Shown in pieces: positions 33,347-49,250 of a stretch of DNA of 64,000 nt. The translations under genes and the position numbers were made by a program. Below the pieces are notes generated by a model. The model was not told the DNA's origin. It did not search any database and worked only from the letters and a program-made list of their open reading frames with translations. Origin of the DNA: Candidatus Marinacidobacterales bacterium (GTDB taxonomy: Bacteria > Acidobacteriota > Vicinamibacteria > Marinacidobacterales > SMYC01); NCBI GenBank assembly GCA_965224085.1, contig CBDCYI010000005.1, forward strand, positions 1,728,001 to 1,792,000. Direction: 5' to 3'. Every line of letters begins with the position of its first letter. Position 1 is the first letter of the stretch.

Positions 33347-33475
33347 TGGAAGTACACGAAACGGCCAGGTCTTAGCTCCATCCAGCCGGCTACACTGTCC
33401 GAGTACGTCTTGAGCAAGTTCATTTTTTCCGTCGAGAGTCTCGAGCCCCTCGTTCTTCTGACGACGCTCGTCCTT

Positions 33476-34844
33476 ATGGGGGTGGCCAAGGGCGGTGCGG
33501 GGTGGAAAAAGATGTTCGGGCTCGGCAAGAAAGAAAAGAGCCCGGCTTCTGGTGCGGACCCTGCGCTCGCCGCGGGCGATTGGGAGCGGGCCGCCAAGAT
33601 ATTCGAAAAAGACGGACGTTATCGTGATGCGGCCAAGCTTTATCGAGGCAAGGGGCAGAACCACGAAGCAGCGCGTCTTCTCGTGCGCGCTGGAGCGCTT
33701 ACGGAAGCAGCGTCCATCTTCGAGCGGGTCGGACATTATCAAAAGGCTGCGGAGGTGTGCGCGCAGTCCGGGGACAACAAAAGAGCGGGCGAGAACTACC
33801 GGCACTACCTCGAAGACCGGTTCGGCACCCTCGCCCTCGCGCGCTCTCCGGCGGACCATGCGGAGTTCACGAAATATTGCCGGCTTGCCGGGCAAGCCTT
33901 CGAGCGCGCCGGACTTCTCGATCAAGCTGCGGAAGTGCTCGAGCGTGGCGAGCAGTGGGAGGATGCGGCTGCGCTGTTCCTCAAGCTCAATCGTCACGTG
34001 AAAGCCGCCGATCTCTATGAGCGTGCCGGAGCGGTGGACCACGCTGCCGACGCCTACGCGCAAGCGGGCGACCGTGTGCGCGCCGCGCAAATGCGAGGCG
34101 AGCATCTTTACAAGCAAGATCAGAAAAACGAGGCGGCGGTGCAGTTTCTCCTCGGTGGCGATCCGCTTCGAGCTGCCGAAGTCTACGAAGAAGCGGGAAA
34201 TTATCTCGACTCCGCACGCTGCTACGAGCATTGCGGCGCCCACCGTCAGGCCGCCGAGGCCTATGAGCGCGTGGAGCAATTCGGCCGCGCGGCGGAAATG
34301 TACGGACGGAGCCAGGACTATAAGAAAGCCGCGGCGCTCTACGAGAAGGCCGAAGACTGGGGCCAGGCGGCGCGGATGTTCGCCGAGTCAGGCGACTATT
34401 ATCGCGCCGCGAAGAACGCGCGCAAAGAGGGACTCACCGAGTTCGCCATCGACTGCCTCCAGAAGATCGAGACAACGAACCCCAATTATCAAGAATCCCT
34501 CGTCGAGCTCGGGCAGAGTTTCATGGAGCGGGATCTGCCGGGTGTCGCCGTGGAGAAGTTGAAGAAGGCGCTTCACGATCAGCCACTCGCGGCCAAGAAT
34601 CTCGACATCTATTACACGCTCGCGGTCGCTTCCGAGCAGATGGGTAGCTACGAAAAAGCTGTGGAGATCCTCAAGCAGATCGTCGCGGAAAACTACAGCT
34701 ATCGGGACGCCGTCGGGCGGCTCCAGGAGCTCCAGAAGAAGCCGGCGAAAGGGGCCACCGAGCCGTCACGCCATCAAGCCGCCAAAGAAGAGCTCGGTGG
34801 CAAGCGCTATGAGTTCATTGAGAAACTCGGCGCCGGCGGGATGG
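33476..34844 (+). pseudogene. 5' part of a TPR/SNAP-repeat Ser/Thr protein kinase gene, interrupted by IS110
   Basis: Repeats of AAxxYExAG; ends RYEFIEKLGAGGM then runs into IS sequence; start could be 33410, 33476 or 33512. Confidence 0.9.
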
Positions 34845-34859
34845 ACTCCCCACGCCGGA

Positions 34860-36155
34860 TCAAGAGAAAACCTTCTTCGTAGGAATCATCGTCGATTCGC
34901 TTTTTGTTGTGGACGACCGCGAGGGGTCGTAAAGAGTTCTTTGTCGAAGCATCGCCATGGCGATGGGTAGAATGCGGTCCATGACGCCTCTGAGAGCTCT
35001 GGCATGGCTGTGGCCCGCGTCGCGAAGCCGATCGTAGTGCTTTTTAAAGTGTGGGTCGCGAAGCACGGCAGTGCTGGCCCAATGATGGAGAGCGTTATTG
35101 AGGGGCAAAGAGCGAGCTCTCCTCATCAGGATAGTTGGTCGCAACTGACCGCGCTTGCCGCTTTTTTTCGTGACGGGTGCGATGCCGCTGAGAGTCCTGA
35201 AGGCTTTGAGATTTCGTAGCCGAATGGGGTCGTGGGCATAGCAGAGCACGGAGGCGAGCACGTAAGCACCGACGCCGGGCAAAGAGGCAAGAATGGCAGC
35301 GTCGGAGCACTGCTTGTCGTTTAGTGCTTGCAAGCGCTTGAACCACTTCTCGAGATGCTGGTCGGAGGCACGACGATGTTGTCGAACGAGGAGCAACTGC
35401 TGAAGGAGCAGTTCGAGATGCTCAGAAGTAGCTTTGGTGGTTGCATGCGCGACTCGGAGTGGTTTTTGATTGAGGGTATCGAGGATCTGCTCGGGTTTTA
35501 CGCGTCGGATGCGGTGTTTTTTAACGAGCGTCTCGATGGTGTGGCGGCTAAGAGAGTTGGGGCTGGATTCGAAGAAGAGTTTTAGGAGCTCGCAGAAAAA
35601 CGCGTCGAGAGCCTTATTCTTTGGCGCGAGCGAGACGAGGTGAGGCCAACAGCGAGTAAGGAGTTCTCGGATCTGCGAGCTGAGGGCAACGTGGTTTTTG
35701 ACAAGTTGGTCGCGGGTGCTCAACAGCCCGCGCATAGCAAGGATCTCCGGAGGTGGAAGTTGCAAGCGCTGAAAGCGGTGACCGTCGGTTCTGAGCGAAT
35801 CGGCGAGAACGAAGGCGTCGCGCCGATCATCCTTGGCGCCGCTCATAGAATGCCGGTCGCGGAAACGGTCGACCTGCTTGGGATTGATGGAGAAAATGGC
35901 GATGGCGTTGTCAAGAAAGAGCTCGACGACGGCTCCATGAGGCTTTTCGATCGCCACTGCGATGCGCTCGGTGTCTTGCGTGGTCAGTTCCAGAAGCCAG
36001 CCGATCGTTTCTGAAAGTCCTTCGCGGCTATGAGGAAAGCCGCGCTCCCCCATAAATTGTCCCCTGGTATCGACCACGCTGGCCAAGTGAAGCCATTGGC
36101 CCAGGTCGACACCGACGAAGAAGTCGTAGTCGAGCTGATTCCTGGAAGAACTCAT
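34860..36155 (-). CDS. IS110-family transposase / bridge recombinase
   Basis: DEDD residues in GVDLG, AIEKP, KDDRRDA; C-domain SLPGVG, SGIAPVTKKSGK, HARALR. Confidence 0.96.
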   Translation of the reverse strand: MSSSRNQLDYDFFVGVDLGQWLHLASVVDTRGQFMGERGFPHSREGLSETIGWLLELTTQDTERIAVAIEKPHGAVVELFLDNAIAIFSINPKQVDRFRDRHSMSGAKDDRRDAFVLADSLRTDGHRFQRLQLPPPEILAMRGLLSTRDQLVKNHVALSSQIRELLTRCWPHLVSLAPKNKALDAFFCELLKLFFESSPNSLSRHTIETLVKKHRIRRVKPEQILDTLNQKPLRVAHATTKATSEHLELLLQQLLLVRQHRRASDQHLEKWFKRLQALNDKQCSDAAILASLPGVGAYVLASVLCYAHDPIRLRNLKAFRTLSGIAPVTKKSGKRGQLRPTILMRRARSLPLNNALHHWASTAVLRDPHFKKHYDRLRDAGHSHARALRGVMDRILPIAMAMLRQRTLYDPSRSSTTKSESTMIPTKKVFS

Positions 36156-36168
36156 TGCCGTCAGCGCA

Positions 36169-36303
36169 TGTGATGTTTCATCGGCCCCTGTACCGGCGCT
36201 CGAAGCGCAACTCCCCATTGGATGTCCATCACAAGAAAATTGCCGGCACGCGTGTCCATACCGGGCGCTCGGAGCGCAGGGCGAAGTATGGCGTTGCCGG
36301 CAA
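36169..36303 (-). ncRNA. Bridge RNA (target-binding loop 36240-36303, donor-binding loop 36169-36233); exact ends unknown
   Basis: Two stem/internal-loop modules, each with a GCGC-U(C/U)CGA-GCGC hairpin, flanked by guides matching the insertion site and the circle junction. Confidence 0.88.
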
Positions 36304-36350
36304 GCTGCTGACGAAATCGAAAATAGTTCAAGCTCATCGTGAGATTTGCT

Positions 36351-36767
36351 CTACCACTGCAATCGAAGCTGGCGCGCGATGCCACCAGCTCGTGCTGGTT
36401 TTTTTCTCGGTTGTTTCGGGCGAAGCACGTCTGCGAGTTTTTCTCGAAGGTAGCGAACATAAGGCGGGTCTAGATATTCACTTCGCACTTCCTCGAGCAC
36501 AGGTGAAAAATAGCGAAGGGAGCGAATGGGTTGTAGTGGCTCCTCATGCTCTTGTAGCTCCCGACGAGCGCAACCCAGAAGTAGGGCGCACTCGAATTCG
36601 TATAACGGGACGCCCTGGCGGTAGAGTCGCGTCGCCATGAAGCGATCGTCGCGCCGTGGTCGCTCAGGTGTGTTCGGAATAGAAACATAGATATCCAAAA
36701 CCGCCCGGACATAATCGTTTTCTGTTAGAGCGTCGCTCGTGAGCGGTTTATCACTGAGCTTCGACAT
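36351..36767 (-). CDS. IS-borne accessory hypothetical protein, 138 aa
   Basis: Strong GGAGGT RBS (36772-36780); YVRAVLDIY..DDRFMATRLYRQGVP..PIRSLRYFSPVLEEV. Confidence 0.75.
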   Translation of the reverse strand: MSKLSDKPLTSDALTENDYVRAVLDIYVSIPNTPERPRRDDRFMATRLYRQGVPLYEFECALLLGCARRELQEHEEPLQPIRSLRYFSPVLEEVRSEYLDPPYVRYLREKLADVLRPKQPRKKPARAGGIARQLRLQW

Positions 36768-37156
36768 CCATCCACCTCCCGCGTCCGCCGCAGATACAGC
36801 ATTTGGCATATCCGAAACTGTCAAGCTTCGTTTTCATTGAAAGAACCATCGAGCTCCGTGACCGGATCTGTTCTCTGATTCCTACATTGCCCGAGTTACC
36901 GACGTGAATGGAACCATGATCCGTTACTTTTTCTTGGTGTCGTCGATACTCACGTTGCCGGTCCGCACAATCTCGACTGTCCTTCGACACTTTCTCGATC
37001 TTTGCGGTTGTAGCCGCGACACTTTATTAGGCCGGCATGATAAGAGCACGCTTTACCGCAGTAGCAGTGTCCACGGTCACAGCTCTTGCAGATGTAGAAG
37101 GCCTCTGAACAGTTACGACAAAAACGCTGGTACACAACGACTGGTTTGGTGGCCAT
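36751..37156 (-). CDS. IS-borne Cys-rich (putative Zn-binding) protein, ~134 aa, with apparent +1 frameshift near 36976
   Basis: CRNC..CKSCDRGHCYCGKAC then, in the next frame, RDCADRQREYRRHQEKVTDHGS..CCICG; overlaps the next ORF's start. Confidence 0.65.
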
Positions 37157-37436
37157 TTGAGACTCAGCAAGCGCTGGACTATGGCCGCCCGTCTGTGAGA
37201 GGCTAGCTTCCACCTGTACTGGAGCGCCTCCTTCGGGGGGCCATCCAAACATCAGAGCCCCGGTCGTTTCTGGCGGCCGGGGCTCGCTATTGTTGCACAG
37301 CAGGCTCACCCTTATCTCGCCGGGGCGAGACGATCTGACTGCCTCGCGCCTACGGCGCGAGATGATGCCTTGTGCATACACATTTTGGTTCGACCTTCCG
37401 CGTAGCTCACGCTTTCGCTGTTCTGACGCTTCCGCA

Positions 37437-37442
37437 AGCGTA
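37437..37442 (-). promoter_or_regulatory. -10 half (TACGCT) of the circle-junction promoter; the -35 TTGATC is at 34858-34863
   Basis: Joined ends read TTGATC-17 nt-TACGCT on the minus strand. Confidence 0.7.
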
Positions 37443-37445
37443 CAG

Positions 37446-38183
37446 GGCGTCGTCTATCGCGCCAAAGACACGCGGCTCAATCGCATCGTGGCCTACAAGA
37501 TGCTCATGGAGCAGTTCATGGAGGTCAAAGAGGTCCGGGAGCGCTTCTTGCGCGAAGCACAATCGGCAGCGCAGCTCAATCATCCGAATATCGTCACGGT
37601 GTTCGACGTGGACGTCGACTCGGAGCAGAACCGGCTCTTCATCGCTATGGAGTTCGTCGCGGGTGAAAGCTATTTCGACATCCTTCAGCGTGAGACGAGA
37701 CTCTCGATCCAGCAGACCGTTCAGTTCATCGGAGGCGTTCTCAAAGCGCTCGCCCACGCGCATCGCCACGGCGTCCTCCACCGCGATATCAAGCCTTCGA
37801 ACGTGATGCTCTCGAAACAGCGCGTCGTCAAGATCATGGATTTCGGCCTCGCCAAGATACTTCGAGACGCGAAAGCGCAGGGCAGTGAGAAGGCGAGCGG
37901 GACGCCGCTCTACATGTCTCCAGAGCAGATTCTCGGCAAGGCACTCGACTTCCGCACGGATATCTACGCCTTTGGAGGGACCGTGTATCACCTCCTCGCG
38001 GGCGAGCCACCTTTCGTTGATGGCGAAGTGCTCTACCATCACGTGCACACACCCGCGCGCTCGCTGAAAGACTTGCGGCCGGACGTTCCGAAGGTGCTCT
38101 GCAGCATCGTTATGGCTTGTCTCAACAAGGAGCCCGCCGACCGGCCGACCTCCGACCAAATCCTGAAAATGTTGAAGAAGTAG
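37446..38183 (+). pseudogene. 3' part of the interrupted Hanks-type Ser/Thr kinase
   Basis: GVVYRAKD, VAYK, HRDIKPSN, DFG, GTPLYMSPE, DIYAFG. Confidence 0.95.
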
Positions 38184-48623: not shown

Positions 48624-49250
48624 TCAGACGCCGATGACTTGGGCCGTGACGCTGCGCTCACGTGGCCCGTCGAGCTCCGCGAAGAGGATGCTCTGCCATT
48701 GACCGAGATGAATTTTTCCTTCTTGGATCGGGAGCGTGACGTTGTTCCCGAGTACGAGCGCCCTTATGTGGGCTTCCGCGTTCTTGCGCTCACAATCCGA
48801 GCAATCCTCGCAATTGTGGAGGTAGCCATGGTCGCGGTTCGCGATCCGCTCGAGGAAATGCTTGACGTCGGCCATGAGCGCGGCCTGGAACTCGTTGATG
48901 AAGACGGCTGTCGTCGTGTGGAGCGTCGAGATGATGAGGAAGCCCGCTTTGACGCCTGAAGACTTCACGAGGTCTTTGATGCGGTCGGTGACGTTGAAGA
49001 GTTCAACTGGGGAGTTGGTGGCGACCTTCAGCGTGCGAGATAGCATTTTCAGCGAGCCGTTGAGCTCCTGTACGGAGTCGTCCGTCGACCGGAACGCGTC
49101 AACCTCGAGGGCGTAGCTCACGCTGCCTGAACCATTGGCTCCGTTCGATCCGTTGGAACGATTGGATGTTGGGGCGGATGTCGGGGCGTTCATAGTGTGC
49201 TCATCGCTGATGTCGGTGCCCGGCCCGTTTTCGACGTAAAATTCATTCAT
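48624..49250 (-). CDS. YjbQ/UPF0047 family protein with N-terminal extension
   Basis: HTTTAVFINE, NAEAHI, LGQWQ..ELDGPR. Confidence 0.9.
   Translation of the reverse strand: MNEFYVENGPGTDISDEHTMNAPTSAPTSNRSNGSNGANGSGSVSYALEVDAFRSTDDSVQELNGSLKMLSRTLKVATNSPVELFNVTDRIKDLVKSSGVKAGFLIISTLHTTTAVFINEFQAALMADVKHFLERIANRDHGYLHNCEDCSDCERKNAEAHIRALVLGNNVTLPIQEGKIHLGQWQSILFAELDGPRERSVTAQVIGV

Follow-up and report, generated by a model that had tools for sequence, protein, structure and literature searches.

A probable donor-binding loop in the bridge RNA of an IS110-family element with a CC core and insertions in kinase genes

The window analyzed herein is the whole stretch of 64,000 nucleotides from a Candidatus Marinacidobacterales bacterium. 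Within the window, an intact coding sequence for an IS110-family recombinase of 431 aa is located at 34860..36155 on the minus strand, as assigned by Pfam, NCBIfam, and alignment with IS621. The Pfam domains DEDD_Tnp_IS110 (PF01548, residues 14-171, 6e-30) and Transposase_20 (PF02371, 2.7e-11) were detected, and the protein scored 161.8 bits against a cut-off of 140 for the NCBIfam family NF033542, 'IS110 family RNA-guided transposase'. The similarity to the solved IS621 and ISCro4 transposases is weak but specific; in the comparison with chain E of the IS621 structure 8wt6 (4.3e-07), the significant alignment covers the Tnp domain only. Four of the five IS621 catalytic residues were aligned: D17, D110, D113, and S332 correspond to D11, D102, D105, and S241 of IS621, the residues taken to be catalytic in that protein. 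S332 is within a KKSGK motif and aligns to the serine of the IS621 SG motif (S241 in native numbering, residue 243 in the chain). The E of AIEKPHG is two columns off IS621 E60 in a weak alignment. The recombinase therefore carries both a DEDD RuvC-like N-terminal domain and a C-terminal Tnp domain with a catalytic-type serine.

The element that carries this gene spans 37444-34845 on the minus strand (2600 bp), with CC on either side. At the left end, CC (37446-37445) is followed by TGTACGCTTGC, whose first base is 37444; the tip of this end, TGTACGCTTGCG (37433..37444, minus strand), includes the right donor TGTAC at 37444-37440. At the right end, GGCGTGGGGAGT finishes at 34845 and is followed by CC (34844-34843), again on the minus strand. 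Its tip, TGGGGAGT (34845..34852, minus strand), is the left donor as located by junction alignment. The ends TGTACGC... and ...GGGGAGT show no terminal inverted repeat by eye. The element splits a TPR-Ser/Thr kinase gene on the plus strand between ...LGAGGM and GVVYRAKDT...; the 5' part of the gene (33410..34842) ends in ...EKLGAGGM, and the 3' part (37446..38183) begins with GVVYRAKDT... and has a Pfam Pkinase match that starts at profile position 13.

The ends were mapped from other copies in the same genome and from contigs of public runs. Fifteen stretches of the genome match the 2.9-kb region and were fetched as 12 loci. All 8 left junctions read flank-CC-TGTACGCTTGC and all 10 right junctions read GGCGTGGGGAGT-CC-flank, with unrelated flanks, and a whole-genome motif scan located the full 23-nt right end at 12 right junctions. 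Among the contigs of four public runs, one (public run X1) joins 34842 to 37445 and skips 2602 bp (34843-37444), with 2 letters common to both sides, as expected from a CC core. This bridging contig is about 91% identical to the flanks and therefore represents the uninterrupted gene of a relative. Since the ends are set by the junctions and the bridging contig, the donor loop described below matches ends that were established without the RNA. The initial annotation had read the RNA match as confirming these same ends, with a CC core on the element strand (GG on the plus strand) that differs from the CT core of IS621; both the ends and the core, which is present at both junctions, are now confirmed independently by the 8 left and 10 right junctions and by the bridging contig. 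A second joint, from 37447 to 37837 with a 20-letter side, was also seen in the contigs of the same public runs.

Two variants of the element are present in the genome: variant A, 99.4-100% identical to the window copy, and variant B, about 85% identical. Two variant-A copies located elsewhere in the genome, L002 and L007, share 99.7% identity with the window copy, and from this identity the element appears to have been recently active. Records related to the element are mostly from Acidobacteriota, and an 85% identical fragment was found in a Candidatus Marinacidobacterales record. Two incomplete copies were also observed. L009 (G000:C9:747925-748786) is a variant-A copy in the glycine-rich loop (G-loop) of another kinase; 1 nt is deleted from its left tip (CCTGACGC), and the copy breaks off into unrelated sequence after about 860 bp. 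L011 (G000:C5:333076-334701, about 1.6 kb) lacks the recombinase gene but has kept its two ends along with the bridge RNA and both accessory ORFs; it is possibly a non-autonomous element mobilized in trans.

The segment under study, 36169..36233 on the minus strand, belongs to the element's left part and is situated just upstream of the recombinase gene. Its assignment as a donor-binding loop was based on motif matches, shuffles, covariance, and comparison with relatives. Read on the minus strand from 36233 to 36169, its RNA is UGUGAUG-GACAUCCAA-UGGGGAGU-U-GCGC-UUCGA-GCGC-CG-GUACAGG-GGCCGAUGAAA-CAUCACA. The loop is closed by a 7-bp stem, UGUGAUG / CAUCACA (36233-36227 / 36175-36169). The left donor guide (LDG) UGGGGAGU at 36217-36210 is identical at 8/8 positions to the final 8 nt of the right end of the element. 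It is followed by a single U (36209), the hairpin GCGC-UUCGA-GCGC at 36208-36196 (36208-36205 / 36204-36200 / 36199-36196), and CG (36195-36194). The right donor guide (RDG) GUACAGG at 36193-36187 is the reverse complement, at 7/7 positions, of the CC core together with the 5 nt that open the left end. The base immediately 3' of this guide, G36186, is the handshake base of the donor loop.

A target-binding loop of the same design lies 5' of the donor loop, at 36240..36303 on the minus strand, and was defined by folding, junction flanks, and covariation. It contains a left target guide (LTG) ACUUCGCCC (36287-36279), which includes both core bases, the hairpin GCGC-UCCGA-GCGC (36277-36265), and, as its right target guide (RTG), GGUAUGG (36262-36256) followed by the handshake bases AC (36255-36254). 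This loop matches the flanks of the insertions and not the ends of the element. The hairpins of the two loops differ at a single loop base (UUCGA versus UCCGA). The two left guides differ in their coverage of the core: ACUUCGCCC spans both core bases, while UGGGGAGU is followed by U and then G opposite the core CC. Watson-Crick pairing of the left donor guide to the core is absent, and the most that can form is a single U-G wobble with the bottom strand (U36209). In relatives, U, A, C, or CC follows the left donor guide; because this position varies, core pairing by this guide seems dispensable. The description of the donor loop given in the initial annotation held throughout: every motif coordinate was exact on the minus strand, both guides match exactly at the mapped ends, the UGUGAUG / CAUCACA stem is present, the inner hairpin is nearly identical to that of the target loop, and the left donor guide covers the core less than the left target guide does.

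The guide words taken singly are unremarkable. In the 64-kb window, TGGGGAGT has 3 matches against 1.0 expected, and GTACAGG has 5 against 1.85 expected. The combination TGGGGAGT-N10-25-GTACAGG, by comparison, has one match in the window, and matches were found in 0/100 dinucleotide-preserving shuffles. A second pair of the words at 49008-49073, with TGGGGAGT and CCTGTAC 51 bp apart on the plus strand, lies within ordinary coding sequence and was judged to be a chance occurrence.

Both loops are enclosed by an outer stem (helix 1), CGUCAG-C / G-CUGACG at 36313-36307 / 36165-36159 on the minus strand, which stops 3 nt upstream of the start codon of the recombinase. The core of the bridge RNA as modeled, composed of the outer stem, target loop, and donor loop, extends over 36157..36313 on the minus strand and matches the covariance model over its full length with 173 bits. 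The minimum-free-energy fold of the 221-nt region includes the closing stem of the donor loop and both GCGC hairpins. The stability of this fold is ordinary (z = -1.53), with 16 of 200 shuffles folding equally well. Since the fold energy is unexceptional, the case rests on the matches and the comparison with relatives, not on thermodynamics. A search of 34500-37800 against Rfam 15 at E up to 1 returned no match.

Folding with a covariance model across homologs, which the initial annotation had named as a check, favored the two-loop RNA. The model R1 was built from the RNAs of five relatives, with the structure specified by the analyst, and gave full-length matches in 60 of 68 sources. Among 60 loci from several phyla fetched by protein similarity, a match was found in 53, each immediately 5' of the transposase gene. 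Across 56 distinct sequences, 92.4% of the cells were paired, compared with 73.3% in shuffles, and none of 500 shuffles reached the observed values; when the partners were slid as a control, 19.5-49.1% of the cells paired. The alignment of these 56 sequences (A3) was fitted to the model, which biases these figures in favor of the structure. Compensatory changes on both sides were found in 33 of 36 pairs, including double changes in 9/9 pairs of the closing stem of the donor loop and in 3/4 pairs of its inner hairpin. In the outer stem, all 7 pairs covary in relatives, with this helix 84% paired.

These comparisons bear on the possibility that the internal copies of the terminal words are subterminal repeats, bound by the transposase at the DNA level, and not RNA guides. 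The words are indeed identical or complementary already as DNA. However, the helices around them keep pairing through compensatory changes in the 56 distinct relatives, which is expected of an RNA and not of a protein site. The two words, one of them direct and one inverted, have a hairpin between them, as in the solved IS621 RNA, and the protein belongs by score to a family named RNA-guided. Binding sites in DNA are therefore a very improbable account of the words.

The guides were found to change together with the ends in relatives. The nearest relative outside the genome, G009, with a protein 62% identical, has the same ends, and the left guide of its donor loop matches its right end at 10/10 positions (CGUGGGGAGU). 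In the more distant, multi-copy G040, the guide CGUGGAAAGU accompanies the right end CGTGGAAAGT-CC, and the guide GUAUAGGG accompanies the left end CC-CTATAC. In G035, the guide GUAGAAGG accompanies GGTAGAAGGT. The right end also matches the guide of the same element in L046 (GTAGGGAGT-CC), L078 (GAAGGGAGT-CC), L073 (GAAGAGAGT-CC), and L076 (CGAAGAGAGT-CC). This relationship was measured as the longest match, with a control strand, since a fixed register misses elements with a differing hairpin register. An exact match of at least 9 nt between the left guide and the right end was found 3' of the gene in 14 of 51 testable loci, compared with 4 of 51 on the control strand; the search covered 1100-1800 nt, within which the right end of most loci was not located. 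A right-guide match of at least 7 nt upstream was found in 46 of 51 loci, with a high control rate of 21 of 51 on the control strand. In a 40% identical relative, L016 and its sister loci (G035), flanking repeats of about 60 bp and a constant conserved site (GCCGACCGGAGGTC.GGCGTTCC) were observed, and the core appears to be CT at the left and CC at the right.

The target loop was compared with the insertion sites. At 7 full insertion sites, 9 to 13 of 14 positions match the target guides, and the window copy matches its own target at 11 of 14 positions. Three variants of the element (window, L003, and L014) have right target guides that differ solely at the wobble base of a Gly codon, in step with their flanks: GGUAUGG is found with CC-ATACC, GGAAUGG with CC-ATTCC, and GGGAUGG with CC-ATCCC. 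On the coding strand, the guides of the target loop read GG(U/A/G)-AUG-GGC-GA(A)-GU. In the 6.87-Mb genome, the variant-A target guides have a single perfect 14-nt match, at G000:C5:176704, within the G-loop of an intact and unoccupied kinase gene (LGKGGMGEVW).

About half of the insertions are at one codon position (G-G-M|G-x-V-Y) of the glycine-rich loop of Ser/Thr kinase genes. The ending ...G-x-G-G-M is seen at 6 of 12 right junctions, and the start G-x-V-Y at about half of the left ones as well as at that of L009. The insertions in kinase loops are those of the window (34843/37446), L002, L003, L004, L007, L008, L009, and L014. A kinase split in the manner of the window copy was found in L003 and G009, and weakly in L004. 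The G-loop codons of kinase genes hold at least 8 insertions or remnants of the element in this genome, in which 46 Pkinase matches were counted; 4 of the 46 start at profile position 13. Sites outside kinase genes also exist, such as an amidohydrolase gene. Literature searches that combined IS110 with kinases, the glycine-rich loop, or insertion sites returned no paper on such targeting.

A different function for the stem-loops was weighed, namely regulation of the transposase through its 5'-UTR by translation control or attenuation, in which case the matches to the ends would be coincidental. The structure does stop 3 nt upstream of the start codon, and a terminator-like hairpin with a U-run was scored inside the target loop. 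Against this, the combined pattern of guide words is absent from all 100 shuffles, relatives with other ends carry correspondingly changed words, and the target loop tracks the flanking target sequence. A 5'-UTR regulator is thus the least probable of the alternatives considered.

The predicted bridge RNA and recombinase resemble the IS621 system (PDB 8wt6) in many features. Both recombinases have a DEDD RuvC-like domain and a Ser Tnp domain. In both elements, the RNA is located in the left end 5' of the gene, with the target loop first, then the donor loop, and then the start codon, and each loop is arranged as stem, left guide, hairpin, and right guide. The left guides correspond to the top strand and the right guides are complementary to the core plus the right arm; in each element, the left donor guide covers less of the core than its target counterpart. 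The right guides are followed on their 3' side by handshake positions, a 2-nt core is present at both junctions, and a -35-like hexamer in the right end faces the tip of the left end. The two systems differ in the core (CC here, CT in IS621) and in the protein, which is only distantly related (431 aa here, 328 residues in the solved IS621 chain). The right donor guide here looks contiguous (7 nt), while that of IS621 is interrupted; an extra outer stem surrounds both loops; and the element is 2.6 kb long, with 1.13 kb from the left tip to the RNA. The natural target of IS621 is an intergenic repeat, whereas the target here is coding sequence.

For IS621, Durrant 2024 (PMC11208160) describes a 5' guide that pairs with the bottom strand over 8-9 nt and a 3' guide that pairs with the top strand over 4-7 nt, core included; the guides found here conform in both polarity and length. 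Hiraizumi 2024 (PMC11208158) gives guide lengths of 9 nt for the LTG (A50-U58) and 8 nt for the LDG (A123-C130), and also describes the handshake, in which bases located 3' of each right guide pair with the DNA of the partner once the top strands have been exchanged. In the present RNA, the AC of the target loop is complementary to donor positions 6-7 (GT), and the G of the donor loop is the complement of the C that occupies target position 7 in all 8 left flanks.

Other members of the family were also compared. Bridge RNAs were predicted in 2024 for 85.7% of IS110s. The compact relatives of the same clade (L044-L099), from Acidobacteriota, Gemmatimonadota, Alphaproteobacteria, and Myxococcota, share the matches to the RNA model, and most have the LDG UGGGGAGU, the RDG GUACAGG, and the core CC. 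They differ in that the left tip is mostly 40-55 nt 5' of the RNA and the two accessory ORFs are absent. Members of the IS1111 group have the RNA in the right end and long subterminal inverted repeats. The present element shares the DEDD recombinase and the RNA guidance with this group, but its RNA is upstream of the gene and its right end comes 15 nt after the stop codon; membership in the IS1111 group is ruled out by these two features. Cargo-bearing IS110 loci are described by Hu et al. (bioRxiv 10.64898/2026.08.14.744561), where the canonical size of an IS110 element is 1.0-1.6 kb. Those loci are likewise larger than canonical and move as a unit, but the emphasis of the preprint is on plasmid-derived and resistance cargo and on growth by half-matches, while the present element holds a conserved two-protein module inside its left end.

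This module accounts for the long left end. The left tip is 1134 nt from the RNA in the window element; the distance grows to 1172 nt in L069 and variant B and is 611 nt in G009 (L043), compared with 40-55 nt in most relatives. The first accessory ORF is Cys-rich. On the minus strand, its N-terminal part (MATKP...) is at 36950..37156, with the frame breaking near 36995, and its C-terminal part (...KVTDHGSIH...CCICGGRG) is at 36751..36990 in a shifted frame. This ORF is frameshifted in variant A and intact in variant B (137 aa) and G009; 14 homologs were collected, with 8 conserved Cys. The second accessory ORF encodes a helical protein of 138 aa (MSKLSDKP..., 36351..36767, minus strand) and begins before the Cys-rich ORF has ended, so that the two overlap. 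It is absent in G009. For the accessory proteins, no Pfam, NCBIfam, or PHROG family was found at a meaningful E, and all homologs are unnamed or 'hypothetical protein'. AlphaFold predicts five helices for the 138-aa protein (pLDDT 77.7) and beta-strands with a long helix for the Cys-rich protein (pLDDT 67.8). No PDB fold matched these models at E <= 0.001; the best values were 0.57 and 2.4.

Other genomes in the phylum carry multiple copies of the 138-aa family, and there it is found beside IstB-like ATPase genes (L109 and L112). In L109, the homolog is directly 3' of an IstB-like ATPase gene, an IS21-type helper. The family was counted in 17 of 301 genomes, including one unpublished genome (G089) that entered the analysis through this count only. 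Since these homologs occur beside IstB-like genes and away from IS110 genes, the ORF family is common to different mobile elements.

A putative promoter across the circle junction was examined as well. On the minus strand, the -35-like hexamer TTGATC (34858..34863) overlaps the stop codon of the recombinase, and TACGCT in the tip of the left end is a -10-like hexamer, 17 nt away across the predicted circle junction. In all 13 elements compared, a TTGACA-like hexamer is located 13 nt before the right tip and faces the TAC... of the left tip. By analogy with IS621, these two hexamers would form a junction promoter. On the element strand near the RNA, a simple sigma-70 scan returned no promoter-like site. 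The circle junction itself was sought as a go-back joint in the assembled contigs of the four public runs, where none was found, and with a 25-nt junction probe, which had 0 matches in the metagenome contigs and, with up to 2 mismatches allowed, likewise 0 in the own genome. Owing to the accessory module, the putative junction promoter would lie 1.1 kb away from the RNA.

The 65-nt segment is concluded to be the donor-binding loop of an IS110-group bridge RNA of the IS621 type, with a probability of about 0.9. The protein family, the mapped ends, the conserved structure, and the covariation of guides with ends agree with the proposal of the initial annotation that recombinase, RNA, donor, and target form one set with a CC core. 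Expression of the RNA, its binding by the recombinase, formation of a circle, and IS621-like chemistry are predicted on the analogy with IS621. On that model, the element's left part, just 5' of the recombinase gene, would be transcribed into the RNA. The first internal loop would pair with the target, and the second, the donor loop, with the joined ends of the excised circle. The DEDD/Ser recombinase would exchange strands at CC, and the AC of the target loop and the G of the donor loop would pair with the partner DNA after exchange of the top strands.

The RNA could be real and the window copy a dead relic, in which the loop has no present function. The frameshift in the Cys-rich accessory ORF of variant A and the imperfect match to the target are consistent with such decay. 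The recombinase ORF, however, is intact, with 4/5 of the IS621 catalytic residues aligned, the donor guides match the ends perfectly, and copies 99.7% identical are present at other sites. A relic is accordingly considered unlikely, although it is the least improbable of the alternatives to a working donor-binding loop.

A broader reading joins the donor loop to the other features of the element, and the evidence leans moderately toward it. The target loop would be fitted to the codons that encode the glycine-rich ATP-binding loop of Hanks-type Ser/Thr kinases (G-G-M-G-x-V-Y), the right target guide of sister variants would have been retuned to the synonymous Gly codons GGU, GGA, and GGG, and a gene module would have been taken up between the junction promoter and the RNA. 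This module would consist of a zinc-ribbon-like protein, with or without the helical protein, which in IS21-like elements elsewhere comes after IstB, and the module may alter RNA expression or the control of transposition.

If this broader reading is true, a large family of paralogous genes offers, in its conserved protein motif, a dispersed landing pad, and a natural bridge RNA is reprogrammed along codon wobble. The element provides a fully specified natural bridge system with a CC core from a clade far from IS621, and it may be of use in bridge editing as an orthogonal candidate. Of more weight than the donor loop itself are the side findings, namely the kinase targeting, the guide variants, and the accessory module. 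Homing to a coding motif that is conserved across a gene family would mean that bridge RNAs can draw on protein-level conservation for their targets, and guide variants that follow synonymous codons would be an example of natural retargeting.
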